Sequence record: SRR20825006_666
Reading direction: 5' to 3' (one strand)
Length of the DNA stretch: 51,364 nucleotides
The translations under genes were made by a program, and so were the position numbers. The notes beneath the pieces are model-generated. The model saw only the letters and a program-made list of their open reading frames with translations. It was not told the origin of the DNA and searched no databases. Positions within the stretch are counted from its first letter, which is position 1. Each line of letters begins with the position of its first letter. Positions 6,658-49,378 of the stretch are shown here, in pieces.

Positions 6658-8241
6658 ATGCCTAAGGTTCTTGTTTCTGACAAATTGAGCGAAACAGCAG
6701 TACAGATTTTCCGCGACAATGGCGTCGAAGTTGATTTCTTGCCAGACGTTGGCAAAGACAAAGAAAAATTGCTTGAGATTATCGGGCAATATGATGGCTT
6801 GGCGATCCGCTCTGCCACCAAAGTTACCGAGAAGATTATTGCTGCCGCTGACAATCTCAAAGTGATTGGTCGTGCAGGTATTGGCGTGGACAATGTGGAT
6901 ATTCCAAACGCTACCGCCAAAGGCATTATTGTGATGAATACGCCGTTCGGCAATTCCATCACGACCGCCGAGCACGCCATTTCTCTGTTGCTGTCTTTGG
7001 CGCGCCAAATTCCAGCTGCTGATGCATCAACTCGTGCTGGCAAATGGGAAAAGTCCAAGTTTATGGGTGTCGAGGTGACGGCCAAAACACTCGGCATTAT
7101 CGGTTGCGGTAACATTGGTGCCATTGTGGCGGATCGTGCTCAAGGCCTTAAAATGAAGGTCATTGCGTTTGACCCATTTCTTACGCCGGAGCGTGCGCTT
7201 GATCTTGGTGTTGAGAAAGTGGAATTGGACGAGTTGTTGGCCCGCGCTGACTTTATCTCATTGCACACACCATTGACCGACGCGACACGCGGCATCATCA
7301 GCGCTGAAAACATTGCGAAGATGAAAGATGGTGCGCGTTTGATCAACTGTGCCCGTGGTGGCCTTGTTGATGAGGCGGCATTGAAAGATGCGCTTGAGAG
7401 CGGCAAGTTGGCGGGCGCGGCCATGGACGTTTTCGAGGTTGAGCCAGCAACAGACAATTCATTGTTTGAGGCGCCAAATCTGATCGCAACGCCGCACCTA
7501 GGCGCGTCCACAACTGAAGCTCAGGAAAACGTGGCCCTGCAAGTCGCAGAGCAAATGAGTGCTTATTTGATGCATGGGGCCATCTCTAATGCATTGAACT
7601 TCCCATCTATTTCCGCTGAAGAAGCGCCGAAATTGATGCCATTTGTGAAATTGGCTGAAATGTTGGGTAGCTTTGCGGGTCAGTTGACGGAAAGTGGCAT
7701 TAAGGGCGTGCGGATTGAGTTTGAAGGCCACGTGGCTGATCTCAACACCAAGCCGATGGTTTCTGCCTTGCTCACAGGTGTTTTGAAGCCTTTGTTGGGC
7801 GATGTGAACATGGTATCTGCACCAGTTCTGGCGAAGGATCGTGGCATGCATGTTGAAACGGTCAACCGTGAGCAACAGGGCGCTTATGAAAACTATATCC
7901 GCCTGACGGTGATCACAGAACGGCAAGAACGTTCCGTTGCGGGCACCGTGTTTGCCGATGGCAAGCCACGTCTGATCCAAGTGAAAGGCGTGAACATGGA
8001 AGCGGAGATTACACCGTCCATGCTTTACATCACCAACGAAGATAAACCTGGCTTTATTGGTCGCCTAGGCACATTACTGGGCAATGAAGATGTGAACATC
8101 GCCAACTTCAATTTGGGGCGCGTGGAAAGTGGCGGCGATGCGATTGCGCTGATCAATATTGATGGTGACTTGAGCGACGCCCAAGTGAAAACAATTTCAG
8201 CCCTTGAAGGGGTGAAGCAGGCTAAACCACTTAAATTCTAG
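6658..8241 (+). CDS. serA: D-3-phosphoglycerate dehydrogenase (long form with ASB and ACT domains)
   Basis: GRAGIGVDN, GCGNIG NAD motif, NCARGG, TPHLGAST, C-terminal NEDKPG ACT domain; GGAGG RBS. Confidence 0.97.
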   Translation: MPKVLVSDKLSETAVQIFRDNGVEVDFLPDVGKDKEKLLEIIGQYDGLAIRSATKVTEKIIAAADNLKVIGRAGIGVDNVDIPNATAKGIIVMNTPFGNSITTAEHAISLLLSLARQIPAADASTRAGKWEKSKFMGVEVTAKTLGIIGCGNIGAIVADRAQGLKMKVIAFDPFLTPERALDLGVEKVELDELLARADFISLHTPLTDATRGIISAENIAKMKDGARLINCARGGLVDEAALKDALESGKLAGAAMDVFEVEPATDNSLFEAPNLIATPHLGASTTEAQENVALQVAEQMSAYLMHGAISNALNFPSISAEEAPKLMPFVKLAEMLGSFAGQLTESGIKGVRIEFEGHVADLNTKPMVSALLTGVLKPLLGDVNMVSAPVLAKDRGMHVETVNREQQGAYENYIRLTVITERQERSVAGTVFADGKPRLIQVKGVNMEAEITPSMLYITNEDKPGFIGRLGTLLGNEDVNIANFNLGRVESGGDAIALINIDGDLSDAQVKTISALEGVKQAKPLKF

Positions 8242-8290
8242 GTGTATTGAAATTCAGCCGGTGCGCGCTGCAGCGCGCATCTAATGAGAG

Positions 8291-8333
8291 CAGGGAAAGC
8301 GTGGTTGAGCAGGCTTTCCCTGTTTCGTTTTTT
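8291..8333. terminator. Probable terminator between convergent serA and slyX
   Basis: CAGGGAAAGC ... GCTTTCCCTG stem followed by a T-rich tract; a second palindrome lies at 8262-8279. Confidence 0.6.
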
Positions 8334-8341
8334 AGTCGTGC

Positions 8342-8554
8342 TTAATAGTGCGGTGGGCGGTCTACGATCTCGCCACCGCCATTGTCGATTTCTTCCATTT
8401 GGGCATAGAGCTTGGCAATTTCGCGATTGAGTTTATCGAACTCAGTCCATTGCTTGGTGATGGTTTGGTTCAAATCTTCAATGGTTTGATCCTGATAGGC
8501 AATGCGCATTTCCAACGCTTCGACGCGTTCTCGCAAATTCTTATTTTCACTCAT
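8342..8554 (-). CDS. slyX: SlyX family protein
   Basis: RVEALEMRIAYQDQTIEDLN and C-terminal PPHY signature; start set at ATG 8554. Confidence 0.92.
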   Translation of the reverse strand: MSENKNLRERVEALEMRIAYQDQTIEDLNQTITKQWTEFDKLNREIAKLYAQMEEIDNGGGEIVDRPPHY

Positions 8555-9530
8555 TGCTACCCTCTTTCTTGGCTTCGCGCTTTTTGGCGGAGCGCACCGC
8601 ATATTCTGCCATGGTGATCCCGGCAACAATAAAGATTGCCGCCACAAAGTGATAGCTTTGCAAGGCTTCGCCCAAAATGATCACTGAGAGAAGTGCGCCA
8701 AAGAGGGGCAAGGCATTGATGAACAGGCTGGCGCGGTTGGCGCCGATCATTTCCACGCCACGGGCATAAAATAGCTGTGAGAGAATAGAAGGAAAAAGGC
8801 CGGTATAGATCACCAAAACCCAGCCGAGCGGTGTGATTTTTGGGATTGCGGCAACAAACTCTGGCAGGCCACCCAGAAAGAGCTGGTAAAAAATTGCGCC
8901 TAGGGTCGCGAAGAAGAAGGTGACCGCAAGAAAGGTCATCCAATGGATGGTTGGGCGATAGCGTAGGCAAACCGAATAGGCGGCATAAATCACGCAGGCG
9001 ATGAGTACGAGACCATCACCAATATTGATGTCCATGCGGGCAAGCCGCATGGGATTGCCTGCTGTTGCCACATAAATTACGCCGACAAGCGTCAACACAA
9101 CGCCCAAAAGCTGCAATGGGTAGGCGCGTTGTTTGAACAGGACAAAATTGGCCATCATCACCATCATGGGAATGGAGGCTTGCTCAATCGCGCCATTGAC
9201 GGCAGTTGTGTGTTGTGCCCCAAGATAGAGAAATAGATTAAAACCGGAGAAGCCTACAGCACCGTAAAATGCCAAAAGCCAGAAGTTTTTCAGCAATATA
9301 GGCAAGTCTTTACGCAAATGCGGCCAAGCAAAAGGCAGGATGACAAGAAAGCCAAGCGTAAACCGACCTGCAATTAATGAGGTCGGGGAAATGTCGTCCA
9401 CGGCGAGTTTGCCGGCAACCATATTGCCGCCCCAGAACAGCGAGGTGAGCACCAAAAGCAGATAGGGCTGATTAAACAGTTGATGGAACGGATTTTTTCT
9501 TACGTTTACTGCGGATTGTGGTTTTGTCAT
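8547..9530 (-). CDS. DMT/EamA family transporter
   Basis: FWGGNMVAGK, two EamA repeats, GANRASLFIN. Confidence 0.9.
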   Translation of the reverse strand: MTKPQSAVNVRKNPFHQLFNQPYLLLVLTSLFWGGNMVAGKLAVDDISPTSLIAGRFTLGFLVILPFAWPHLRKDLPILLKNFWLLAFYGAVGFSGFNLFLYLGAQHTTAVNGAIEQASIPMMVMMANFVLFKQRAYPLQLLGVVLTLVGVIYVATAGNPMRLARMDINIGDGLVLIACVIYAAYSVCLRYRPTIHWMTFLAVTFFFATLGAIFYQLFLGGLPEFVAAIPKITPLGWVLVIYTGLFPSILSQLFYARGVEMIGANRASLFINALPLFGALLSVIILGEALQSYHFVAAIFIVAGITMAEYAVRSAKKREAKKEGSNE

Positions 9531-38431: not shown

Positions 38432-38507
38432 CTATCTGCCCTCCCTTTGCATTCCGCGCCATTATATGTTTGTTCTGGCATGATTGAGAAGCATTAAAGG
38501 TATCCCC

Positions 38508-38921
38508 TTGCGCATCACCGACCAGATCAGCATTGAAGAATGGGAACTATCTGAGCAGTTCACCCGTGCCAGTGGCCCTGGCGGGCAGAATGTGAATAAG
38601 GTCAGCACTGCTGTCGAGCTGCGGTTTGAGGCGGAGCGATCACCTAGTCTGCCTGATCCTGTGAAGCGGCGCTTGAAGCGGTTGGCCGGGCGGCGTTGGA
38701 CGCAGGATGGGGCGCTGATCATTTTTGTGCAGGATACACGTTCGCAGGCGCGCAACCGCGAAATCGCGCGTGAGCGGTTGGCAGCGTTGATCTTGAAAGC
38801 GACCGAAAAGCCCAAACGACGCGTCGCGACCAAGCCAACATATGGCTCGATTAAGCGCCGTATTGCAGCAAAAAAGGCCAGAGGCGAGGTGAAAAAGCTG
38901 CGGGGGAAGGTGGAGGAGTAA
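38508..38921 (+). CDS. arfB: Alternative ribosome rescue peptidyl-tRNA hydrolase ArfB
   Basis: RASGPGGQNVNKVSTAV, RSQARNRE, basic C-terminal tail; TTG start after AAAGG. Confidence 0.95.
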   Translation: MRITDQISIEEWELSEQFTRASGPGGQNVNKVSTAVELRFEAERSPSLPDPVKRRLKRLAGRRWTQDGALIIFVQDTRSQARNREIARERLAALILKATEKPKRRVATKPTYGSIKRRIAAKKARGEVKKLRGKVEE

Positions 38922-39065
38922 GGCGCATAAAGCTAGCAATTGATGCTCATCCACAGTGTGGTTGTAAAAATAATTTTGTGTTTTGTTTTCTTCTAACATG
39001 CTGAAATTTAATTAATCTTTCCTTCTTATTGGCCTGGTTGATCTTGTTGCGAAAACAAATTCCAA

Positions 39066-39119
39066 TTGACGCATTTTAAGTTTGGCTCTATTAGTTCGGT
39101 AAGTTGACGAATTAATAGA
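39066..39119 (+). promoter_or_regulatory. Promoter and ROK-type operator
   Basis: TTGACG-N17-TATTAG overlapped by the palindrome TCTATTAGTTCG-N9-CGAATTAATAGA (11 of 12 bp). Confidence 0.7.
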
Positions 39120-39128
39120 AGTGATTAT

Positions 39129-40343
39129 ATGACCGAAACGGCAAATAATATTCGCAGACTTAATAAATGTAATGTTTTTGAAGTGATTGCTCATGAAGGG
39201 CCAATCTCTCGCGCTGCTATTGCAAAGCGCTTGGGCCTTTCCAAACAGACCTTATCCGAAGTCGCAAAAGAGCTGGAATCCGAAGGTTGGGTGCAGCAAG
39301 TGGGGCTTGAGCGCGGCAATGTAGGCCGCGCGGCTATGAATTTTGAGGTGGTGCCTGACGCGGCCTTTGTGGCTGCTGTGGATTTGGGCGGCACCAAGGT
39401 AAAAGTCGCCATTGCAAATCTGGCGTGCCAGATTTTTGGCGAGGCTACCGAGAAGACCAATCCGAAAGGTGGCGGTGCTGTCGTTGACCAAATTGCGCGC
39501 CTGTGTCGCGAGATGATGGACCAGCATGGATTGCAGCAAGATCGGTTGCGTTTGGCTGTGGTTGGTGTGCCTGGCGTGCCGGATCATGAAAGCGGCGCCG
39601 TGCATATGGCGCCCAACATTCCGCAATTGGATGAGATAGATTTTGCTGGCGAGTTGTCTAAGGCGCTCGGCTTTGATGTGGTTATCGAAAACGATGTGAA
39701 CCTCGCGGTCTTGGGCGAGCATTGGGGCGGTGTGGCGCAACATGTGGACGATTTGGCCTATGTGGCGCTCGGCACGGGTATTGGTGCGGGCATCATCGTC
39801 AATGGCGAATTGGTGCGCGGCAAAAATGGCGGTGCGGGCGAGTTGGGCTATTTGCCGTTCGGTGCGGATCCGTTTGAAGATGCATCATTGCGCCAAGGGG
39901 CGCTGGAACGCGTGACAGCGACAGACGCCATGCGCGACTATTACTTTGAGTTGACGGGCGAAAAGATCGAAGTGCCTGAGATTTTTGATCGGCTTGATCA
40001 GGATGATCATGCGCAAAAAGTATTGGATCGCACAGCGCGCGAAACTGCGCGGGCGGTGGCCGCCATCAGCGCATTGATCGATCCGGAGCAGATTGTCTTT
40101 GGCGGTTCGATTGGTCGCCGGGAAGAATTGTTCTCGCGCATCAAGGCGCAATTTGGTCTGATTACGCGGTCTCCAGTTGAACTTTATATCAGTGACTTGG
40201 GTGGCAAAGCTGCCCTAATTGGCGCAGCCTCCCTGGGCCTAAGCCATGTGCACGCTACCCTTTTGGCGGGTGGCGTGCCGGGCGCCGAAATCACGCTGCC
40301 CCCTGCCAAACTTGCAAAGTTGGGAGTTGTCTCCAATGGCTAA
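39129..40343 (+). CDS. ROK family transcriptional repressor
   Basis: N-terminal HTH ISRAAIAKRLGLSKQTLSE, VDLGGT, ENDVN, GTGIGAG, GAGELG. Confidence 0.93.
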   Translation: MTETANNIRRLNKCNVFEVIAHEGPISRAAIAKRLGLSKQTLSEVAKELESEGWVQQVGLERGNVGRAAMNFEVVPDAAFVAAVDLGGTKVKVAIANLACQIFGEATEKTNPKGGGAVVDQIARLCREMMDQHGLQQDRLRLAVVGVPGVPDHESGAVHMAPNIPQLDEIDFAGELSKALGFDVVIENDVNLAVLGEHWGGVAQHVDDLAYVALGTGIGAGIIVNGELVRGKNGGAGELGYLPFGADPFEDASLRQGALERVTATDAMRDYYFELTGEKIEVPEIFDRLDQDDHAQKVLDRTARETARAVAAISALIDPEQIVFGGSIGRREELFSRIKAQFGLITRSPVELYISDLGGKAALIGAASLGLSHVHATLLAGGVPGAEITLPPAKLAKLGVVSNG

Positions 40344-41583
40344 ATCCGTGCCAGATTTCCGCTCATTCCTTGATGAAACACTCGCTATTGAGCTGCTGCG
40401 TGGCGCTGTCGCCCGCGAGAGCATCACGGGCAATGAGGCGAACTTTGTTGGCTATTTGGATGAGCAAATGTCGGCGCGGAAGCTGGCGCCTGTTTGGGAA
40501 GAGTTTTTGCTCGGTCGTCCCAATATTTTTGGCAAGCGCGCAGGCAGCGGTGGCGGACAAAATCTATTGTTTATCGGCCATACCGATACGGTGCATGTGG
40601 ATGGCTGGCGCGCGCATTGGCAAGGCGATCAGCGCGAAGACCCGTTTGGTGGCGCTATTATCGATGGTGAGATTTGGGGCCGTGGCACGGGCGATTTGAA
40701 GGCAGGGATTTGCACCAGCTTGGCGGCCCTGGACTTGATTGATAAGGCGGGCATCAAGCTGAAAGGCGATGTGAGTTTTGCCTTTATTGGTGATGAGGAA
40801 AGCGGTGAGGAAGGCACGGGCATCAGCGCGGGCATTGACCATCTCACCACCTCACAAAAGTTTTTGGATGCACATAAACCAGATTTCGCCGTGTATGTAG
40901 AGCCAACCCAATTGCAGGTGTTTCCTGCGCAAATGGGCTTTTTCATTGCTGATATCAGTATTAAGGGCAAAACCGCCTACTTTGGCGTGCCTGAGCAAGG
41001 CATTGATGCGCTGAAAGCCAGCCATCAGGTGATGCAGGAAATTTGGACCCTTTCAGAGCAGATGGGCAAAGCGGCCAATCATGATTTGGTGGGCGAAGCC
41101 TTTATTCTGATCACCAAAATTGAAGGCGGCGGCTATATTGCAGTGCCCGGCGACTGCAAATTGTCGCTGATCTGCAAAGTGCTGCCGGGGCAAAGCCTAG
41201 ATGAGGCCGTGACCGCCTTGGAAGCTGCCATTGGCCGCGGCATTACAGACACTGGTTGCAGCTTTGAGATTTCATATCCCGCTGGTCGGGATCACAAGTT
41301 CGGTGGCTCCCCCACTGATATTGACCGTTCAAACCCCGCAATTGATCAATTGTCTCAGGCGCTAGACAGCGCCATGCCAGATCGGGGCGTCATCAATGGC
41401 GCACCCTACTGGTCTGAGGCACCGTTTTTGATCGATCGGTTGGGGTGCCCGACGGTTTATTGCGCGCCAGGCAATATTGCGAACTGCCACACTTTAGAAG
41501 AGCGCGTTTCAATCAATGAATATTTGGCCGGCATAACGGCCTTCGCAGAATTCATCGCACACTATTGTGGCGTGGATGAATAA
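40336..41583 (+). CDS. M20 family metallo-amidohydrolase (ArgE/DapE-like deacylase)
   Basis: GHTDTV, GRGTGDLK, GDEE, VEPT, CHTLEE; complete dimetal ligand set. Confidence 0.92.
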   Translation: MAKSVPDFRSFLDETLAIELLRGAVARESITGNEANFVGYLDEQMSARKLAPVWEEFLLGRPNIFGKRAGSGGGQNLLFIGHTDTVHVDGWRAHWQGDQREDPFGGAIIDGEIWGRGTGDLKAGICTSLAALDLIDKAGIKLKGDVSFAFIGDEESGEEGTGISAGIDHLTTSQKFLDAHKPDFAVYVEPTQLQVFPAQMGFFIADISIKGKTAYFGVPEQGIDALKASHQVMQEIWTLSEQMGKAANHDLVGEAFILITKIEGGGYIAVPGDCKLSLICKVLPGQSLDEAVTALEAAIGRGITDTGCSFEISYPAGRDHKFGGSPTDIDRSNPAIDQLSQALDSAMPDRGVINGAPYWSEAPFLIDRLGCPTVYCAPGNIANCHTLEERVSINEYLAGITAFAEFIAHYCGVDE

Positions 41584-41603
41584 TTTATGGAGGAAGGAAA
41601 CCC

Positions 41604-42653
41604 ATGAAAAACCTAACAAAAATGATGGCAGGTGGCTTGGCCGCTTTGCTGATGGCCAGTGGCGCTTTTGCACAAACCATTGGCCCAAATGGTGAAACAG
41701 CAACCCCTTCAACAGAGGTTGTGGTTGCTGATGGTGATGTTGAAGCGCTGAAAAGTGGTGGCTATTCTGCCGCGCTTGTTTGGCACGATCAGTCTGATTT
41801 TGTGAACGCAGTTACACAAGGTGCGACGGATGAATTCACTCGTTTGGGCATTGAAGTTGTGGCGACAACCAATGCGAGTTTCGATACGGCTAAACAGCGT
41901 TCAGACATTGAAACTGTGTTGACCAAAGAGCCAAACATTGTACTGGCTTTGCCGCTTGATCCAGTTGCTTCGGCCGCTGCATTTAAAGAGGCTGTTGATA
42001 ATGACGTTCAGCTTGTTTTCTTGTCCAACGTGCCTAACGGGTACAAGCATGGTGAACATTATGCTTCCATTGTGACCGATGATTTGTATGCCATGGGCAA
42101 GCAAGCGGCTGATGCTTTGGCGGCTGACCTTGGTGAAACGGGCAAAGTAGGCTGGATCTATCATGATGCGACCTATTATGTGACCAACCAGCGCGACAAC
42201 GCGTTCAAAACCACCATTGAAAACGATTATCCAAACATGGAAATTGTGGCACAGGCTGGCATTTCCGATCCTGCGCGGGCGGAAGATATCGCCAACGCCA
42301 TGTTGCTGAAGCATCCTGATTTGGCTGGTGTTTATGTCACTTGGGCGGGCCCTGCTGAAGGTGTTTTGTCTGCCTTGCGTGCCAATGGCAACAAAACCAC
42401 CAAAGTGGTGACGCTTGATCTTTCTGAGCCGATTGCACTCGACATGGTACGTGGTGGCAATGTGTCTGCCATCGTTGCAGACGAAGCTTATGAGCTTGGT
42501 CGCGCCATGGCCGCATCTGCTGCACGCGGTTTGTTGGGTCAAGAAAGCCCAGCCTTTGTGGTCGCCCCAGCGGTGACTGTGACAGCCGACAATGTGTCAG
42601 AAGGTTGGATGCAATCATTGCATCGCGATGCGCCTGAAAGCGTGACGAAATAA
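41604..42653 (+). CDS. Sugar-type ABC transporter periplasmic binding protein (RbsB fold)
   Basis: Signal peptide AFA|Q, Peripla_BP_4 features, TNQRDNAF; GGAGG RBS. Confidence 0.9.
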   Translation: MKNLTKMMAGGLAALLMASGAFAQTIGPNGETATPSTEVVVADGDVEALKSGGYSAALVWHDQSDFVNAVTQGATDEFTRLGIEVVATTNASFDTAKQRSDIETVLTKEPNIVLALPLDPVASAAAFKEAVDNDVQLVFLSNVPNGYKHGEHYASIVTDDLYAMGKQAADALAADLGETGKVGWIYHDATYYVTNQRDNAFKTTIENDYPNMEIVAQAGISDPARAEDIANAMLLKHPDLAGVYVTWAGPAEGVLSALRANGNKTTKVVTLDLSEPIALDMVRGGNVSAIVADEAYELGRAMAASAARGLLGQESPAFVVAPAVTVTADNVSEGWMQSLHRDAPESVTK

Positions 42654-42662
42654 CCAAACTTT

Positions 42663-42724
42663 GTGTCGCGCCTTATGGGCGCGGCACGCTTCTAGCTTGT
42701 CGATGCGGGGAGGGACCGCGCATC
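42663..42724 (+). other. Intercistronic hairpins after the binding-protein gene (mRNA stabiliser or attenuator)
   Basis: GTGTCGCGCC ... GGCGCGGCAC stem and a second GATGCG ... CGCATC stem. Confidence 0.55.
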
Positions 42725-42740
42725 CAGCGAAACGGATTTT

Positions 42741-43697
42741 ATGATGCAATCGACCATGCAAAAATTACGACAGCTCAATCTATCGCAGTATGTCGTTTAT
42801 ATCGGCTTTTTGCTGATCTTTCTCTTCTTTGCGGTCACGTTGGGGAACGATGGATTTCTGACCCAGCGCAACTTGACCAATATTGTTTTGCAAACCGCGC
42901 CCATCACCATCATGGCTATTGGTTTGGTGTTTGTGTTGGCGGCGGGTGAAATTGACCTGTCCTTTGGCTCAATCGTGGCCGTCGCGGCGCTTGGTAGTGC
43001 CGTTGTGTTGGGCGACTATCCGCTGTTTGTCGGCGTTTTAGCCGGCCTTGGTATCGGTTTGGCGATCGGCTTTTTTAACGGCGTGCTGGTGGCTTATTTG
43101 CGTTTGCCATCATTCCTCGTGACCTTGGCGACCATGGGGCTCTTTGCTGGTGTCGCTCGCTCTATGACTGATCTGCGCTCTGTGCCGGTGCTGAATGAGA
43201 GCTTCGTTAATATGTTTGGCTCGGGCTCTTTATTCGGTGTGCCTTCATTGGTGTTGTGGACCATTGGTGCGGTGGCACTCGGGCACTTTGTGTTCCGCGA
43301 AACCAAGTTTGGTGCCCATGTGCTGGCCACGGGGGACAATGCCCGCGCCGCGCAAGTGACAGGCATTAAGGTGCCGCATGTGCGCTTGCTGGTGATGATG
43401 ATTTGTGGCGGCCTCGCGGGCTTGGCCGGGCTGCTTTATGCCGGGCGGTTGCAAGCGGCGCGCTATACGCTGGGCGAAAGTGATTTGATGACCGTGATTG
43501 CCGCGGTGATCATTGGCGGCACGGCCCTTAAGGGCGGTAAAGGCACCATTGTCGGGGCACTGGTTGGCTCTTTGATGATGGGCATGTTGAACAATGGCCT
43601 GATTTTGATGGGCCTTTCCGTATCTGACCAAATGATTGTCAGAGGCGTGATTATTTTGATCGCGGTGGCGATTTCGCTGCGCGACGTGAACAATTGA
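42741..43697 (+). CDS. Sugar ABC transporter permease (RbsC/BPD_transp_2)
   Basis: GEIDLSFGS, LPSFLVTLA, GDNARAAQVTGI, IAAVIIGGT. Confidence 0.93.
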   Translation: MMQSTMQKLRQLNLSQYVVYIGFLLIFLFFAVTLGNDGFLTQRNLTNIVLQTAPITIMAIGLVFVLAAGEIDLSFGSIVAVAALGSAVVLGDYPLFVGVLAGLGIGLAIGFFNGVLVAYLRLPSFLVTLATMGLFAGVARSMTDLRSVPVLNESFVNMFGSGSLFGVPSLVLWTIGAVALGHFVFRETKFGAHVLATGDNARAAQVTGIKVPHVRLLVMMICGGLAGLAGLLYAGRLQAARYTLGESDLMTVIAAVIIGGTALKGGKGTIVGALVGSLMMGMLNNGLILMGLSVSDQMIVRGVIILIAVAISLRDVNN

Positions 43698-43705
43698 GGT
43701 AAGCC

Positions 43706-44911
43706 ATGTTTTTAGATCTTTTGCGGCGACGTAACCCCAAATTTATCGAAGTGGCCATGGCGTTGCATCAAGAGGGAAAAATCCCCGCCAACGCCTATGT
43801 GTTGGATTTGGATGCGGTGGAGCACAATGCCAAAATCTTGCGCGCTGAAGGCGACAAGCTGGGCATGAAAGTCTTTGCGATGACCAAGCAGGTTGGGCGC
43901 AATTCGGCCTTTTGCCAAGCGTCCATGCGCGGTGGTGTCAATCAAGCTGTGGCGGTGGATGTTGCCTGCGCGGTGGCCTGCAAACGGGCTGGCATGGATA
44001 TTGGCCATATCGGCCATTTGGTGCAGGTGCCTAAATTTGAAGCGGATATGGTGGCCAGTTATTTGCAGCCGCAATATTGGACCGTGTTCAGCCTTGAAAA
44101 GGCACAAGAAGCAGCGGCAGCGGCCCATAAGGCGGGGCGGCAGCAAGATATTTTGGTGCGGATTAAATCCGATGGCGATGTGTTTTACAAAGGTCATGAA
44201 GGTGGCATCAAGGCGAGCGGCATCGTTGAGTTTGCCCACAAGGTGGACGCAATGGATGGTGCACGCTTTGCCGGGATTACGACATTCCCAGCACTCCTGT
44301 TCGATCAAGACACGCACGAAGTGCAGCCTACGCCAAACTTGACCACGCTAGAAAATGCAGCGGCGGCCTTGATTGATGCGGGGTTCACCGACATTGAAAT
44401 CAATGCGCCGGGCACCACGTCTTCAGTTGTGTTGGAGGCGTTGGCCAAAGCAGGTGCAACGCAATGCGAGCCGGGCAATGGCTTGCACGGCACCACGCCA
44501 CTACATGCGATCAAAGATTTGCCGGAACTGCCAGCCGTGCTCTATCTCAGCGAGGTGTCGCACCTGCATGAAGACAAAGCTTATTGCTTTGGCGGCGGGC
44601 TTTATATTGATCCGGTGTTTCCTGATTATGATGTGAAGGCCTTGGTTGGCGGCGCGCCAACGGTGGAAGAAAAGGCGCTTGCCAGCGTCGATATTCCGCC
44701 TACCAGCGCGATCGATTATTACGGCATGATTGATTGCACAGGCAGCGTTCAGCCCAAGTCAGGCGACAGCGTTGTGTTCGGCTTCCGCGGGCAGGCTTTT
44801 GTGAAGCGGGCTTATACGGTTGGCGTCTCTGGCATTTCAACTGGCAACCCAAAGGTCGAGACCATTGAGAATATCTTTGGTCAGGCCGAAAACTGGCCAA
44901 ATCTGAGGTAG
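43706..44911 (+). CDS. YhfX-like fold-type III PLP-dependent enzyme (alanine racemase N-terminal barrel)
   Basis: YVLDLD, PLP Lys in FAMTKQVGRN, GHLVQVP, GITTFP, INAPGTTS, EPGNGLHGTTP, EVSH, FGGGLY, IDYY, FRGQAF. Confidence 0.88.
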   Translation: MFLDLLRRRNPKFIEVAMALHQEGKIPANAYVLDLDAVEHNAKILRAEGDKLGMKVFAMTKQVGRNSAFCQASMRGGVNQAVAVDVACAVACKRAGMDIGHIGHLVQVPKFEADMVASYLQPQYWTVFSLEKAQEAAAAAHKAGRQQDILVRIKSDGDVFYKGHEGGIKASGIVEFAHKVDAMDGARFAGITTFPALLFDQDTHEVQPTPNLTTLENAAAALIDAGFTDIEINAPGTTSSVVLEALAKAGATQCEPGNGLHGTTPLHAIKDLPELPAVLYLSEVSHLHEDKAYCFGGGLYIDPVFPDYDVKALVGGAPTVEEKALASVDIPPTSAIDYYGMIDCTGSVQPKSGDSVVFGFRGQAFVKRAYTVGVSGISTGNPKVETIENIFGQAENWPNLR

Positions 44912-44915
44912 CATG

Positions 44916-45665
44916 ATGGATATTTCAAACAATCAAGCTGCTGATGTGTTGCAGCTCACCAACATCCACAAAGCCTTTGGCGGCGTGGTGGCGATTGAGG
45001 ATTTTTCGCTCAATCTCAAGGCTGGCGAAATTGTTGCCCTAGTGGGTGACAATGGGGCGGGTAAATCGACGCTGATCAAAATCATTTCCGGCGTACATGC
45101 GCCCACCTCGGGCACCATCGCCATTGATGGCAAGGAAACCAGTTTTAAAGATGCTACTGAGGCGCGTGCGTCTGGCATTGAGGTGGTCTATCAGGATTTG
45201 GCGCTGGCGGACGAGCAAGCGGTTTATATGAATATGTTTTTGGGGCGCGAGAAAACCAAGGGGCCGTTTGGCCAATTGGACCGCAAAGGCATGGTGCAGG
45301 AAACCGAAGATTTGGTGAAAGAACTGGATGTGCGCATCCCGTCTGCCAAAACCACGATCCGCAATTTGTCAGGCGGCCAGCGGCAGGGTGTTGCCATTGC
45401 GCGCGCCACCCATTGGGCGACCAAGCTGGTTTTGCTGGACGAGCCAACCGCGGCGCTGGGCGTGGCAGAAACAGCCAAGGTAGAAGAGAACGTCGCGGCC
45501 TTGAAAGAGCGCAATTTGGCGGTGTTGATCATCAGCCACAGCCTTGATCAAGTGTTCCGCTTGTCTGATAGAATTTGTGTTTTGCGGCGCGGTCAACAGA
45601 TTGGTGTGCGCGAAACGGCGAAGACGGATAAGAACGAAATTGTCTCGATGATCACCGGAGTCTAG
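44916..45665 (+). CDS. Sugar ABC transporter ATP-binding protein (single domain)
   Basis: GDNGAGKS, VYQDLAL, LSGGQRQ, LLDEPTAALG. Confidence 0.93.
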   Translation: MDISNNQAADVLQLTNIHKAFGGVVAIEDFSLNLKAGEIVALVGDNGAGKSTLIKIISGVHAPTSGTIAIDGKETSFKDATEARASGIEVVYQDLALADEQAVYMNMFLGREKTKGPFGQLDRKGMVQETEDLVKELDVRIPSAKTTIRNLSGGQRQGVAIARATHWATKLVLLDEPTAALGVAETAKVEENVAALKERNLAVLIISHSLDQVFRLSDRICVLRRGQQIGVRETAKTDKNEIVSMITGV

Positions 45666-45705
45666 GTCCCTAACCCACGCCAATTTACCCACGATCATCG
45701 AGCAT

Positions 45706-45742
45706 AAAGCCGCGCTGTGTTGTCGTCATAGCGCGGTTTTTT
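45706..45742. terminator. Bidirectional terminator between convergent ABC operons
   Basis: AAAGCCGCGCTGTG ... CATAGCGCGGTTTTTT. Confidence 0.75.
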
Positions 45743-46493
45743 ACACCTGCACGTAGGGCCGATCGTCCAAAATATGCACTTTGGCGTCTGTGCCATAAAT
45801 GCGGTGCAAAAAGGCACTGTCCACCACATCGAGCGGGGTGCCTTCTTGGTCAATTTTTCCATCCGCCAACGCCACCACATTGTCGGCATAGCCGCTGGCA
45901 TAATTGATGTCGTGCAACACGATGACAATGGTGCGCCCATGGTGCTCACAGAGCTCGCGCAGAACGCGCATGAGTGAGCGAGACGCGGCAATATCCATAT
46001 TGTTGAGCGGTTCATCCAGTAGCATATATTCTGTGTCTTGCGCATAGGTCATGGCCACATAAGCGCGCTGCCGTTGCCCGCCGGACAGTGTGTCCAATTG
46101 GCGATCAGCCAACTCGTTCAAATCCAGCACCATCAGGGCTTCATCCACCTTGTCCCAATCCTGCTTTTGCATCCGGCCTTTGGCGTGGGGATAACGACCA
46201 AAACTCACCAGCTCGCGCACGGTGAGGCGCGGTTCTAATTGTATCGACTGAGGTAGTATGGAAAGTTTGCGCGCTAAAGCATCGTTGGGTGTTTTGCCAA
46301 CGCTCATATTATCGATCAAGATTTGACCGTCTTGCAATTTCAGCAGCCGGGCGATCAGTGAAAGCAATGTGGATTTGCCCGCGCCATTGGCTCCTACCAG
46401 CGCGGTTACCTTGCCTTTGGGGATGGTCAAATTCAAATCATCCAAGATGGTATGTTGCCCCAATTGATGAGTGAGGTTTCGCACAGAAATCAT
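45741..46493 (-). CDS. Iron-siderophore ABC transporter ATPase (CeuD/FatE/YclP-like)
   Basis: GANGAGKS, FGRYPH, LSGGQRQRA, LDEPLNN, LHDINYAS. Confidence 0.93.
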   Translation of the reverse strand: MISVRNLTHQLGQHTILDDLNLTIPKGKVTALVGANGAGKSTLLSLIARLLKLQDGQILIDNMSVGKTPNDALARKLSILPQSIQLEPRLTVRELVSFGRYPHAKGRMQKQDWDKVDEALMVLDLNELADRQLDTLSGGQRQRAYVAMTYAQDTEYMLLDEPLNNMDIAASRSLMRVLRELCEHHGRTIVIVLHDINYASGYADNVVALADGKIDQEGTPLDVVDSAFLHRIYGTDAKVHILDDRPYVQV

Positions 46494-47434
46494 TTTTTCA
46501 ACCTTTGCAATAAAAGTAGCAAAAAGACGAGACCGCCGACAAAGTCGATCACGACAGCGAGTGGTGTACTAAGGCTCAACATCCGTTCCATAATGGTTTG
46601 TCCGCCCACCAGAATGATGCAGGAGATAAGGCCCGAGCTGAGCAACAACGTGGAGTGATAAGGGCTTGGCGTGAGTAAGTGGGCGATGCTGACGACAAGC
46701 AATCCTAAGAAGGCCACTGGGCCGACGAGTGCTGTGGACACTGACACCAAAATGGCGATCACCGCTAGCGCGAGTAGTTGTACGGCCCGGACATTCTCGC
46801 CCAGATTTACTGCTACATCATAGCCCAACGAGATTACGTCTAGCCGATGGCGGATGGTCCACGCAAAGATCAGACAAGCGATGATGATGGCTACGCCGAT
46901 ATAGAGCAGCTCCGTGTCGAAGTTATTGAAGCTGGCGTAAGATGCGATTTGAATATGGGCATATTCGTTTGGATCGATCATGCGGGTGGCAAAGCTGGTG
47001 AGTGAGCGGAAGAGCGTGCCCAAGATCACCCCCGTCAAAATCATCCGCGTCAGATCGCGGCCATGTTCGAAAATCAACGTGCCGAACAGCAGGAACGAGG
47101 CAAACAGCAAGATTAAAGTGTTGAGAGCGAATAGCCCGTATGTGCCGATGGACAACATGCCTTGGCCGCCAAAAAAGAACACCATCATGGTGATGATCAG
47201 CACATAAAGCGCATCAAATCCCATAATAGATGGCGTGAGGATGCGGTTTTGCGCGATGGTTTGAAACAGCAGGGTGGAGGACGAGACTGCAACGCCTACC
47301 GCGATGATTGCCAGCAATTTTGTACCCCGAAATGCGAGCACAAAATCCCAATTTCCGCGCGAACCGATGGTCATGTAAAGCACCATCGAGAGAGCAAGCA
47401 GCAATGCGAGAAGGCAAAGGCGTTTAACGGGCAT
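46490..47434 (-). CDS. Iron-siderophore ABC permease (CeuC/FatC-like, FecCD family)
   Basis: FQTIAQNRILTPSIMGFD, IDPNEY, LVGPVAFLGL. Confidence 0.92.
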   Translation of the reverse strand: MPVKRLCLLALLLALSMVLYMTIGSRGNWDFVLAFRGTKLLAIIAVGVAVSSSTLLFQTIAQNRILTPSIMGFDALYVLIITMMVFFFGGQGMLSIGTYGLFALNTLILLFASFLLFGTLIFEHGRDLTRMILTGVILGTLFRSLTSFATRMIDPNEYAHIQIASYASFNNFDTELLYIGVAIIIACLIFAWTIRHRLDVISLGYDVAVNLGENVRAVQLLALAVIAILVSVSTALVGPVAFLGLLVVSIAHLLTPSPYHSTLLLSSGLISCIILVGGQTIMERMLSLSTPLAVVIDFVGGLVFLLLLLQRLKK

Positions 47435-48383
47435 GTCGTTCTCGCCCATACAGAATCCACAAAAAGATCAATGCGCCGATAATGCCCATTATGGTGCCGA
47501 CCGGAATTTCAAATGGATAGCGCACCACACGCCCGATAATGTCGCAAATCAGCACGAGGCTTGCGCCGAAAAAGGCCGTGATCGGCAGGGTGAGCCGCGC
47601 ATTGTCACCATAGAGGCGGGACACAATGTTGGGGATCACCAATCCCACAAAGGGGATCATGCCGACGGTGACTACGGTCAGTGCCGTGACGATGGAAATG
47701 GTGATCAGGCCCAGCACCACCACTTGATTATAATTCAGCCCTAAGCTGATGGCTGTGGTACGCCCCATGCCAACAATAGCAAATTGATCTGCGATTAGAT
47801 AGGCGAGCAGCGCAACGATGGCGGCGATCCATAGGGTTTCGTACCGGCCTTGTAAAACGCCAGAAAATTCGCCTGTGGTCCAAATCTCAATATATTGCAG
47901 TAGGTCTGCCTGATAGGCGACAAAGGTGACCCCGGCACCGATGATGCCGCCATAGATCAGCCCTATCAGCGCAATGTAAAGCGGCTTGGTGGCGGGTAGT
48001 TTGATCACGATCAGCATTAGGCCAATGCTTGAGACCAAAGCCATGGTTGCGGCGATGCAAATCTGCACGATCAGCGAAGCGGATGGGAAATAGAGTATGG
48101 CGATTAAAATGCCCAGCATTGCGCCTTGGCCCGTGCCCGCTGTCATCGGTTCCACAAACCGATTGCGCACTAGCAGCTGGATAATGGTGCCGCAAACCGC
48201 AAGCGCGCTGCCGGTGATTAACACGGCCAAGGTGCGTGGCAATCGGCTAACGAGCAGCAATTCGAGCTCTTCGGGATTGAACAGATTATTCGGTTGAAGG
48301 TCGATCACCCCAACAAAAAGGGAAAGGGTGGCGATCACCAAAAGCACCAACAGGGCCATCAATGTTGTCGCCACCCGATTCAT
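47424..48383 (-). CDS. Iron-siderophore ABC permease (CeuB/FatD-like, FecCD family)
   Basis: SRLPRT, RNRFVEP, GEFSGVLQGRYE, IPFVGLVIPN, YPFEIPVG. Confidence 0.92.
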   Translation of the reverse strand: MNRVATTLMALLVLLVIATLSLFVGVIDLQPNNLFNPEELELLLVSRLPRTLAVLITGSALAVCGTIIQLLVRNRFVEPMTAGTGQGAMLGILIAILYFPSASLIVQICIAATMALVSSIGLMLIVIKLPATKPLYIALIGLIYGGIIGAGVTFVAYQADLLQYIEIWTTGEFSGVLQGRYETLWIAAIVALLAYLIADQFAIVGMGRTTAISLGLNYNQVVVLGLITISIVTALTVVTVGMIPFVGLVIPNIVSRLYGDNARLTLPITAFFGASLVLICDIIGRVVRYPFEIPVGTIMGIIGALIFLWILYGRERHAR

Positions 48384-48389
48384 TTGGAT

Positions 48390-49280
48390 TTATTCGCCTT
48401 TAAAGGTGGCTTGAATATCGTCCAAAATGATGTTCATGGACTGGATGCCGCCGCCGGCAATGTAAAGCGGGGCAGATGACAAATAGACGACATGGCCGTT
48501 TTTCCAGGCGTTGGTTTCGTGCACCAATGGATTGTCCAAAGTCTTTTTGGCGCTTTCACCATCTTGGCCAATGGCAGCCAGCCGGTCGATCACGATCAAA
48601 ATGTCTGGGTTGGTGTCTTTGATAAATTCAAAGCTGGCGGCTTCACCGTGTGTGGATTGTTCAACATCCTTGGCGGCTTCTTCCAGATCGAGGTTGGTGT
48701 GCAACCAGCCAAAACGACCACTTGCGCCATAGGCTGAAACTTTTGGCCCGTTGGTCATCAAGATCAAGGCTTTGCCTTTACCGTCCAGCAAGGCTTTGGT
48801 TTCATCCAACTTTGCATTAAACGCGTCCGCCAATTCGTTGGCTTTGTCTTCTTTGCCAAAAATTTTGCCATAGGCATCCAAGCGTTCAAGGCCTTGGCCG
48901 ACAGTATCTTCCCAGATGGTCATGTCGATGGTGGGGGCGATTTTGGTGAAGGCTTCAACATGGGTTGAAGAGCGGCCACCGGCAATCACCAGATCAGCGT
49001 TCAGGGCGGCGAGTGCCTCAAAGTCTGGTTCAAAGAATGAGCCAACTGGTGTTGCGCCTTCAACGGCCCCATCGAGATAGGTCACATAGTGTGGACTTAA
49101 TACGCCGTCAGCTTTCACGCCAAGGGCATCCAGCGTGTCGAGCGCTGAAACGTCGTAGACAGCGATTGTGGCTGGGGTGGCAGGAACTTCGACGTCGCCT
49201 TGATAGGTTTTTACGGTCGCAGTATCGGCGAATGCGGGCGTTGCCAAAAGGGAGGCGGCAACTAAAATTGAGCGTAGCAT
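48390..49280 (-). CDS. Siderophore-binding periplasmic protein (CeuE/FatB/YclQ-like)
   Basis: Signal peptide AFA|D, ALDTLDALG, VGSFFEPD, GGRS, GRFG, HGE, IDRLAAIG, YIAGGG. Confidence 0.93.
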   Translation of the reverse strand: MLRSILVAASLLATPAFADTATVKTYQGDVEVPATPATIAVYDVSALDTLDALGVKADGVLSPHYVTYLDGAVEGATPVGSFFEPDFEALAALNADLVIAGGRSSTHVEAFTKIAPTIDMTIWEDTVGQGLERLDAYGKIFGKEDKANELADAFNAKLDETKALLDGKGKALILMTNGPKVSAYGASGRFGWLHTNLDLEEAAKDVEQSTHGEAASFEFIKDTNPDILIVIDRLAAIGQDGESAKKTLDNPLVHETNAWKNGHVVYLSSAPLYIAGGGIQSMNIILDDIQATFKGE

Positions 49281-49321
49281 TTTGTTCTCCAGAACGGATT
49301 TGTGTGGTGCGACCTTTAAGT

Positions 49322-49378
49322 GGAGCGGATAACTCATAATAAATTGAGAGTCTAGATTAAATATGAGTTTTTTGATCC
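49322..49378 (-). promoter_or_regulatory. Putative iron-responsive operators (imperfect TGA-N9-TCA)
   Basis: GGA-N9-TCA at 49322, TGA-N9-TTA at 49345, TGA-N9-TCC at 49364; AACTCATA/TATGAGTT inverted repeat. Confidence 0.4.

Follow-up and report, generated by a model that had tools for sequence, protein, structure and literature searches.

A conserved six-gene operon of Alphaproteobacteria combines an M20 metallohydrolase, a sugar-type ABC importer and a YhfX-family PLP enzyme in a candidate pathway for N-acylated amino sugars

Closest described systems

Described systems that resemble the operon studied here include the canonical N-acetylglucosamine (GlcNAc) system (NagC, NagA, and NagB), the ong cluster of Pseudoalteromonas prydzensis, and the yhfZ-yhfY-php-yhfU-yhfT-yhfX-yhfW-yhfS cluster of Escherichia coli. 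The operon itself (genes at 39129-45665, locus at 39066-45665) lies in sequence record SRR20825006_666, whose full 51,364 nt we call the window, and it encodes a ROK regulator, an M20 metallohydrolase, the components of a sugar-type ATP-binding cassette (ABC) importer, and a pyridoxal 5'-phosphate (PLP) enzyme of the YhfX family. With the GlcNAc system it has in common a ROK repressor carrying a helix-turn-helix (HTH) domain, for which NagC is the nearest model, a presumed deacylation step and, in 17 of 80 related loci, a NagB-II-like gene. However, an M20 enzyme stands in place of NagA, no kinase or phosphotransferase system (PTS) is encoded in the operon, and the PLP enzyme is an addition without a counterpart.

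According to its report, the ong cluster is likewise repressor-controlled, and its deacetylase frees the amine of a sugar derivative, on which a fold-type III PLP enzyme then acts (PMC9537276). There, the deacetylase OngB and the PLP-dependent deaminase OngC turn N-acetylglucosaminate (GlcNAc1A) into 2-keto-3-deoxygluconate (KDG), and neither in that cluster nor, as we read it, in the operon does phosphorylation precede the deacetylase and PLP steps (PMC9537276). The two nevertheless differ in the type of deacetylase (D-aminoacylase for OngB, M20 here), in the transporter (an SSS symporter vs an ABC importer), in the C-terminal domain family of the PLP enzyme, and in the KdgK and RidA genes, which lie inside the ong cluster but are absent from the window and do not recur in the 80 loci (PMC9537276).

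The YhfX protein of E. coli shares the same two Pfam domains with the PLP enzyme of the window at about 35-39% identity, and in both settings a dedicated regulator accompanies YhfX, along with a hydrolase and a transporter. The neighbours themselves differ wholly, being ROK, M20, and CUT2-type ABC proteins here, in contrast to YhfZ, a PRD protein, a phosphotriesterase (PTE)-family protein, DUF2620/YhfT, a phosphopentomutase-like protein, and YhfS in the yhf type. YhfX has stayed an orphan family although E. coli carries it and a crystal structure exists (4KBX); in the literature that we searched, no report on its function was found.

Judging from gene content and conservation, we read the operon as an autoregulated unit for the uptake and catabolism of a sugar-like compound with an N-acylated amine, in which deacylation would be followed by YhfX chemistry (probability about 0.65). 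Its most robust element is that the hydrolase probably frees an amine and YhfX then acts at the amine-bearing carbon, since PLP enzymes depend on a free primary amine and YhfX has a hydrolase beside it in both genomic contexts. This order of events, deacylation and then PLP chemistry on the freed amine, had been suggested in an earlier note on this DNA, and its logic fits the genes present.

Organization of the operon

The features of the locus are as follows.

39066-39094, + strand: putative sigma-70-type promoter, read from the sequence (-35 box TTGACG at 39066-39071, 17-nt spacer, -10 box TATTAG at 39089-39094)
39087-39119, no strand: operator, the inverted repeat TCTATTAGTTCG-N9-CGAATTAATAGA with arms at 39087-39098 and 39108-39119, presumed ROK binding site
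39129-40343, + strand: ROK regulator, encoded at the head of the operon; winged HTH at the N terminus (MarR_2/HTH, E 2.7e-08), followed by a ROK sugar-binding domain (ROK, E 1.1e-48)
40336-41583, + strand: M20 (ArgE/DapE-like) metallohydrolase, presumed deacylase (Peptidase_M20, E 1.8e-25; M20_dimer)
41604-42653, + strand: CUT2-type (ribose/allose/rhizopine-binding) periplasmic binding protein with a signal peptide (Peripla_BP_4, E 7e-39)
42741-43697, + strand: ABC permease of the monosaccharide type (BPD_transp_2, E 1.6e-39)
43706-44911, + strand: YhfX-family fold-type III PLP enzyme (YhfX-like_C, E 8.2e-24; Ala_racemase_N, E 1e-17)
44913-45665, + strand: single-domain ABC ATPase (250 aa, one nucleotide-binding domain; ABC_tran, E 6.1e-32)
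45714-45737, + strand: terminator-like hairpin, a 10-pair stem followed by a T run (consensus match only)

Open reading frame (ORF) calls and family scans of the window bear out two claims of the earlier note, namely that six close-set genes run in the same direction, all on the + strand, and that the PLP gene (43706-44911) sits between those of the permease and the ATPase. The successive gene junctions are an 8-nt overlap and then gaps of 20, 87, 8, and 1 nt. Here, the M20 ORF opens at 40246, and the ATG at 40336 was chosen as its start to match where the relatives align. In a scan of the six proteins, none met the curated cut-off of any NCBIfam model. The absence of a sugar kinase, isomerase, or dehydrogenase, also claimed earlier, holds for the window but not for the relatives, as a gene for a SIS deaminase/isomerase follows the ATPase gene in 17 of the 80 loci.

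Conservation across genomes

With a profile of the PLP enzyme, at least 498 confirmed relatives were retrieved from a species-level genome collection, and the best 80 of them (all 65-98% identical) were analysed with their loci; genome-wide checks were made in the nearest whole genome (G001; 3.5 Mb, 98% complete) and in four other operon-bearing genomes. Closest among the named records are Maritalea genomes, whose PLP enzymes are 97-98% identical to that of the window. All six genes are found in the same order within 9 kb in 71 of the 80 loci, and six of the nine incomplete loci are cut by contig ends (L005, L053, L054, L061, L062, and L066). Decayed operons were seen as well: in L006 (5728-7143, 13389-14468), two transposase genes stand where the ROK and M20 genes had been and the SIS ORF is fragmentary, while L040 (8549-11955) retains the operator and the ROK, YhfX, and ATPase genes only. 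Moreover, the M20 match in L069 spans just 197 residues. The hosts belong to the Hyphomicrobiales, Rhodobacterales, Thalassospira, and Geminicoccaceae, and some copies are plasmid-borne; in Ruegeria sp. TM1040 and Sinorhizobium fredii NGR234 the PLP gene resides on large plasmids, and the complete operon was confirmed in TM1040, where it corresponds to TM1040_RS01745-RS01770. Two further Alphaproteobacterial loci (L095 and L096) also carry the six-gene operon.

Outside the genus, identities are 65-73% for YhfX, 51-66% for M20, and 46-58% for ROK, making YhfX the most conserved enzyme of the set. When the flanks of the 80 loci were clustered, only a second binding-protein gene and the SIS gene recurred across lineages. 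Clusters of opposite-strand shadow ORFs were disregarded. Other flanking genes are lineage-specific: 9-10 Mesorhizobium loci have a trehalose-type cluster, and five loci have a Pgl-like gene. The operon is a real and strongly conserved module of marine and soil Alphaproteobacteria and is presumably self-repressed. The expectation that its genes would co-occur elsewhere is upheld both by the 71 complete loci and by a distant metagenome contig (L135), on which an M20, permease, and binding-protein set 43-54% identical to that of the window lies beside YhfX.

As a separate observation, seawater libraries labelled as RNA (runs X15 and X16) contain contigs of a relative that is 91-95% identical to the window (38800-45800 compared). 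One contig of 15.6 kb covers the whole operon, and others of 2.2-2.3 kb cover the M20 to binding-protein and the permease-YhfX-ATPase portions. These contigs represent either transcripts or carried-over DNA and are no proof of transcription.

Promoter, operator and ROK regulator

The operator has arms of 12 nt that are 92% complementary and separated by 9 nt, and the -10 box TATTAG falls within its left arm. A 25-bp palindrome, TTAGTTCG-N9-CGAAyTAA, thus overlaps the -10 region. While a sigma-70 consensus scan of the window did not list the promoter at 39066-39094, because the last base of its -10 box is G, 64 of 71 related loci have, 22-26 nt 5' of the left operator arm, a hexamer that departs from TTGACA at no more than one position. 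It is this conserved -35 box that places the -10 box inside the operator.

From the related loci we derived the operator core TTAGTTCG-N9-CGAACTAA, and tested it at no more than 2 mismatches in 16 positions on the loci with 250 nt of upstream DNA. All 71 loci with enough upstream sequence contain the core, at a distance of 31-62 nt from the downstream ROK start. Across all 80 loci (1,540,694 nt), a search allowing up to 3 mismatches gave 76 matches, comprising 72 operator sites, 3 offset copies, and 1 site elsewhere. Since the consensus was taken from the same loci, the fixed position is the stronger argument for an operator. In G001, the pattern matched the operon's own site only, with reversed-pattern controls giving 1 and 4 matches at no more than 2 mismatches; this search yielded no further pathway genes, and the sole match indicates that the regulon consists of the operon alone. 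One operon under one operator, as first proposed from the window, is therefore supported by the palindrome at the ROK promoter in all 71 testable loci.

The ROK regulator is presumed to be the protein that binds the palindrome, and with its gene first in the operator-bearing operon it would be autoregulated. Its orthologues (46-100% identical) are encoded upstream of M20 in 73 of the 80 loci. The protein scored 132.6 bits against the NagC model (cut-off 650) and 106.2 bits against Mlc (cut-off 530), and with these scores, far under the cut-offs, it is neither. ROK proteins usually carry a GE(I/L)GH motif with a cysteine zinc motif behind it. Here, GELGY is found in the sequence, and by eye no cysteine-rich zinc motif was seen after it, so that the regulator may be a zinc-free ROK variant.

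The YhfX-family PLP enzyme

Over its length, the PLP enzyme is a YhfX homologue, with matches to YhfX-like_C (PF21279; 84.4 bits, cut-off 27) and Ala_racemase_N (PF01168; 65 bits, cut-off 24.1) and with residues 1-385 aligning to residues 2-376 of E. coli YhfX (4KBX; E 2.1e-69). Its AlphaFold model (pLDDT 85, pTM 0.88) superposes on 4KBX with a TM score of 0.88. Fifty-seven residues are invariant in 14 members drawn from both the ABC and the yhf context types, including Lys61, His104, Glu255, His286, Tyr338, and Arg361. Among these, Lys61 in the motif MxKQxGR (14 of 14) aligns with the HGK lysine of 6QKB, and we infer that it is the PLP-binding lysine. One swap in the active-site region sets the two types apart, as Asn258/His261 of the ABC type are replaced by His258/Thr261 in the yhf type. 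The family is sparsely distributed: of 401 genomes in a sample of the phylum, 9 encode PF21279, and among 14 control genomes only E. coli does.

By profile, fold, and language-model comparison, the closest characterised group to YhfX is that of the D-threonine aldolases, D-serine dehydratases, and D-3-hydroxyaspartate aldolase. In a Foldseek search, D-threonine aldolases and D-3-hydroxyaspartate aldolase came directly after 4KBX (TM 0.66-0.69, with E 8e-16 for D-threonine aldolases; ranks 2-11 include 7DIB, 4V15, 7YQA, and 6QKB), with alanine racemases (TM 0.59-0.63) and decarboxylases ranking behind them. The sole other solved match in the profile search was D-3-hydroxyaspartate aldolase (6QKB; E 0.018), with the PLP lysines aligned. 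Moreover, of 30 language-model neighbours outside the YhfX family, 20 have a D-serine-dehydratase domain and 10 the racemase N domain only. The kinship is nonetheless distant, as YhfX is 15-17% identical to members of this group and has PF21279 rather than PF14031 as its C-terminal domain. The group carries a His-x-Asp/Cys metal motif, whereas in YhfX an invariant FGFRGQAF falls where this motif would be (alignment by eye). Ornithine racemase may be another relation of the YhfX family.

These relationships bear on the main alternative to be weighed, which is that the operon is an Alphaproteobacterial counterpart of the ong pathway. The imported compound would be GlcNAc1A or another 2-acylamino-aldonic acid like it, M20 would deacetylate it to glucosaminate, YhfX would act as an ammonia-lyase to give KDG, and housekeeping KdgK and Eda would finish the route. 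We consider this unlikely. In its favour, glucosaminate is a D-beta-hydroxy-alpha-amino acid, and the nearest relatives of YhfX are D-3-hydroxyaspartate aldolase and the D-threonine aldolases (TM 0.67-0.69 for the latter, vs 0.59-0.63 for alanine racemases), with the D-serine-dehydratase domain prevailing among the language-model neighbours. M20 and fold-type III enzymes also normally act on alpha-amino acids. Glucosamine and glucosaminate are, however, both D-configured beta-hydroxy alpha-amino carbonyl compounds, so that the similarity to D-threonine aldolases does not separate an amino sugar from an aldonic acid as the substrate. Our literature search found nothing on GlcNAc1A in Alphaproteobacteria, and the glucosaminate literature that it covered is silent on the YhfX family. 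A precedent for the chemistry is provided by OngB and OngC, and the ong cluster was reported only from Gammaproteobacteria and one Betaproteobacterium, which by that account leaves Alphaproteobacteria with no known route for GlcNAc1A (PMC9537276).

The M20 metallohydrolase

The M20 protein, the presumed deacylase that would free the amine of the substrate, has an intact catalytic centre. We take its metal ligands and catalytic residues to be His82, Asp120, Glu154, Glu155, Glu189, and His385, all of which are conserved without exception in 54 orthologues and align with their equivalents in DapE (7UOI) and ArgE (7RSF). The lid domain is altered. Tyr215 and Asp224 replace the His (of a GxxxH motif) and the Asn of DapE/ArgE in all 54 orthologues, and the Arg position is occupied by Lys in 48 of them. 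The replaced His, Asn, and Arg are presumably substrate-contacting residues in DapE and ArgE, and the changes thus fit a substrate other than a standard N-acyl amino acid. They count as well against the import of an N-acyl aldonic acid.

Database names such as 'alanine racemase' would suggest, alternatively, that the two enzymes are housekeeping ArgE/DapE and alanine racemase, whose genes happen to neighbour those of a sugar transporter. We give this next to no credence, and the view of the earlier note that the enzymes are not housekeeping ones stands. Against the ArgE/DapE equivalog models, M20 scored 60-142 bits, with cut-offs of 218-460 (best scores 141.7, 138.1, and 116.3 bits for cut-offs of 428, 217.6, and 297.7, respectively). 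The PLP enzyme, for its part, has the YhfX-specific C-terminal domain and matched no NCBIfam alanine-racemase model. Added to this are the rarity of the YhfX family (9 of 401 genomes of the phylum sample) and the joining of these genes with a transporter in one operator-controlled operon in 71 of the 80 loci.

The sugar-type importer

Peripla_BP_4, BPD_transp_2, and an RbsA/XylG-like ATPase, the components of CUT2 monosaccharide importers, are all present in the operon. The binding protein matches the RbsB, AlsB, and rhizopine binding-protein models at E values of only about 1e-13, and its best solved relatives are sugar-binding proteins (E 1e-15). The permease falls under the cut-offs of the GguB, RbsC, and AraH models. 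In CUT2 importers the ATPase has two fused nucleotide-binding domains. The ATPase of the window (250 aa), in contrast, covers no more than the N-terminal half of the YtfR, XylG, AraG, and RbsA models, aligning to positions about 1-240 out of roughly 500, though the fused form is found in the distant relative L135 (9324-10847; 507 aa).

A ROK regulator together with a CUT2 importer is typical of neutral sugars and amino sugars and would be unusual for acid sugars, which speaks against GlcNAc1A as the imported compound.

Two tandem binding-protein paralogues are encoded in 35 of the 80 loci, vs one in the window. In L003 (Maritalea myrionectae; PLP enzyme 97% identical), where the paralogues are 55% identical, the second gene lies at 7836-9035, between the first and that of the permease, while in the window there is only the 87-nt gap at 42654-42740. 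Loss or gain of the paralogue must therefore have taken place within the genus.

YhfX in other genomic contexts

The yhf-type neighbourhood was seen in three matches from other classes and on plasmids of Bacillus thuringiensis and Cetobacterium somerae. It comprises YhfZ, a PRD protein, a PTE-family hydrolase, DUF2620, YhfT, and YhfX, often joined by a phosphopentomutase-like protein and YhfS. A PTE-family protein is encoded beside YhfX in all five yhf-type loci; Cetobacterium adds an amidase, and one locus a cellobiose-type PTS. By family scan, YhfZ, PTE, DUF2620, and YhfT, all present in the five yhf-type loci, are absent from the window.

Beyond Alphaproteobacteria, metagenome contig L135 encodes YhfX and a two-domain ATPase, followed by a permease, an M20 protein, and a binding protein that are 54, 43, and 52% identical, respectively, to those of the window, with a BNR-repeat protein upstream. 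Comparison with this contig confirms that the module of YhfX, importer, and M20 is conserved across phyla. Elsewhere, CUT1-type permeases are encoded near YhfX on L137, and a GMC oxidoreductase and a DUF1349 protein beside it on L136. The oxidoreductase gene of L136 speaks for the glucosaminate route.

In Embleya (L132; YhfX 43% identical), a single strand carries genes for a ROK regulator, an APC permease, YhfX, a ROK protein without HTH (kinase type), and a NagB-II-like SIS protein. L135, L136, and L137 all carry relatives of the Embleya YhfX, each in a different setting. This grouping in Embleya of permease, kinase, and SIS enzyme invites comparison with Amadori/Heyns catabolism as known for fructoselysine, where M20 would trim an N-alpha-acyl or peptide remnant, YhfX would attack the end that bears the free alpha-amino acid, and a deglycase role would fall to the SIS protein. 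We regard the set as presumably resembling FrlA, FrlD, and FrlB, and take E. coli yhfX to adjoin the frl operon, which would fit as well. Such a pathway is highly improbable, however, as the FrlB model gives the SIS proteins only 27 bits, compared with 245-281 bits for NagB-II, the Alphaproteobacterial loci have no kinase, and a racemase-like step would have no evident role.

A further alternative, quite improbable in our estimate, is that an amide-linked conjugate of an amino acid and an (amino) sugar is split, with M20 as the peptidase that releases the halves, YhfX racemising the (D-)amino acid, and the sugar half passing to a kinase and a deaminase. M20 is indeed a peptidase family, YhfX proteins are widely annotated as racemases, and both the SIS deaminase and the PLP enzyme would be given a role. 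On the other hand, YhfX is found with no nearby amidase-type gene in Embleya and in L040 (ROK, YhfX, and ATPase only), its standing as the most conserved enzyme (65-73% identity) would be odd for an accessory racemase, and we know of no free amino acid-sugar amide of known abundance.

A side observation concerns DUF1349 genes, which adjoin YhfX in two unrelated loci, an Alphaproteobacterial metagenome-assembled genome (L040, 12501-13082) and an actinobacterial-type contig (L136, 186-1040). This could be chance or reflect a further pathway component.

Deaminase genes and the proposed pathway

Directly 3' of the ATPase gene, a double-SIS gene is found in 17 of the 80 loci. The best model for its products is NagB-II (NF046059; 245-281 bits, cut-off 430), GlmS models giving 125-164 bits and FrlB 27 bits. 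The nearest genome, G001, encodes a NagB-I above cut-off, a KdgK-like protein (273 bits, cut-off 400), and Eda; Eda is present in all five operon-bearing genomes, and NagB-II-like genes in the four besides G001. A hexosamine product would thus be usable in G001 through NagB-I, and with the KdgK-like kinase and Eda both a hexosamine and an aldonate route are feasible there. The latter gains from this genome content and from the fact that its two enzymes would suffice, matching a one-operon regulon. It leaves no role, however, for the NagB-II-like gene of the 17 loci or for the ROK kinase and SIS genes of Embleya, and KdgK, Eda, and RidA genes recur nowhere in the 80 loci.

The two-enzyme pathway that the earlier note had envisaged is probably not a closed one, given the co-transcribed NagB-II-like gene in 17 loci and the ROK kinase next to the same type of deaminase in Embleya. 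Together, these genes point to hexosamine-6-phosphate as the end product, handled by enzymes that are encoded elsewhere in the genome.

Our preferred route, held tentatively and at somewhat below even odds, is that the substrate is an N-acyl 2-amino sugar and that YhfX retains the amine and makes an ordinary (glucosamine-type) hexosamine. The earlier part of the scheme belongs to the more probable general reading given at the outset. In the absence of inducer, the ROK regulator would occupy the palindrome over the -10 box of the single promoter. The binding protein, a permease dimer, and a dimer of the single-domain ATPase would import a neutral, sugar-like compound with an N-acylated amine, from which M20 would take off the acyl group to leave a primary amine. 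The YhfX-family enzyme would form an aldimine with this amine and carry out its chemistry at the carbon bearing it. In the preferred route, this could be inversion at C2 (mannosamine type to glucosamine type) or a PLP-assisted reaction in which a substituent at C3 is removed or replaced. Phosphorylation by a housekeeping kinase and the action of a glucosamine-6-phosphate deaminase would then yield fructose-6-phosphate and ammonia, the deaminase being NagB-I from elsewhere, as in the nearest genome, or the in-operon NagB-II-like protein of some relatives. A hexosamine product would explain the NagB-II-like gene of the 17 loci, the kinase-deaminase pair of Embleya, the ROK and CUT2 types of regulator and importer, and the altered M20 lid.

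Several points weigh against this route. All 80 Alphaproteobacterial loci lack a kinase gene, and in G001 the operator controls none, so the route needs a kinase encoded elsewhere. The deaminase gene is missing from 63 of the 80 loci, and among actinobacterial-type loci the kinase and deaminase context is seen in one of four (L132, and not L135, L136, or L137). In the five genomes checked, NanE is encoded in one and an AGE-family epimerase in four, and MurQ or MurQ-like genes in all five (one above cut-off), leaving no pathway gap for N-acetylmannosamine or N-acetylmuramic acid; the presence of these genes removes the support for either compound as the substrate. Furthermore, the kinship of YhfX to D-beta-hydroxy-amino-acid aldolases and dehydratases appears to suit an aldonic acid as well. 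To our knowledge, no PLP-dependent enzyme acts on a free amino sugar, and all the characterised fold-type III enzymes that we know of use alpha-amino acids. It is doubtful, in our judgement, that YhfX proteins are the first PLP enzymes to take a free hexosamine as substrate and act directly on its C2 amine, whether as a 2-epimerase or as a PLP 'etherase' that would cleave off a C3 substituent. The probability left over by the readings considered here goes to some further explanation.

The operon is, at any rate, a well-defined and uncharacterised catabolic module of the amino-sugar type. It offers a minimal and experimentally tractable setting for YhfX, with a single regulator, operator, and importer alongside two enzymes, and Ruegeria sp. 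TM1040 and Sinorhizobium fredii NGR234 are culturable named carriers. If the hexosamine route is correct, it would constitute a phosphorylation-independent entry of unusual N-acyl amino sugars into the glucosamine-6-phosphate pathway and would provide a function for an orphan family whose members range from E. coli to Actinobacteria. Either outcome would be new: amino sugars would be shown to undergo a PLP reaction, or a major marine bacterial group would have its own, non-homologous pathway for oxidised chitin monomers, the second of its kind.

Neighbouring genes

Convergent to the operon, on the - strand at 45741-49337, are four genes of an iron-chelate ABC importer (a FecE-like ATPase, two FecCD permeases, and a Peripla_BP_2 binding protein). 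The hairpin at 45714-45737 is common to the two operons. In the NCBIfam scan, the nearest model to the iron-chelate binding protein is SstD, a catecholamine-iron protein. This importer adjoins the operon in Maritalea loci only and lies outside the conserved module. Just 5' of the promoter, on the + strand at 38484-38921, there is an ORF with a GGQ motif (ASGPGGQNVNKV) that looks like an ArfB-type peptidyl-tRNA hydrolase.

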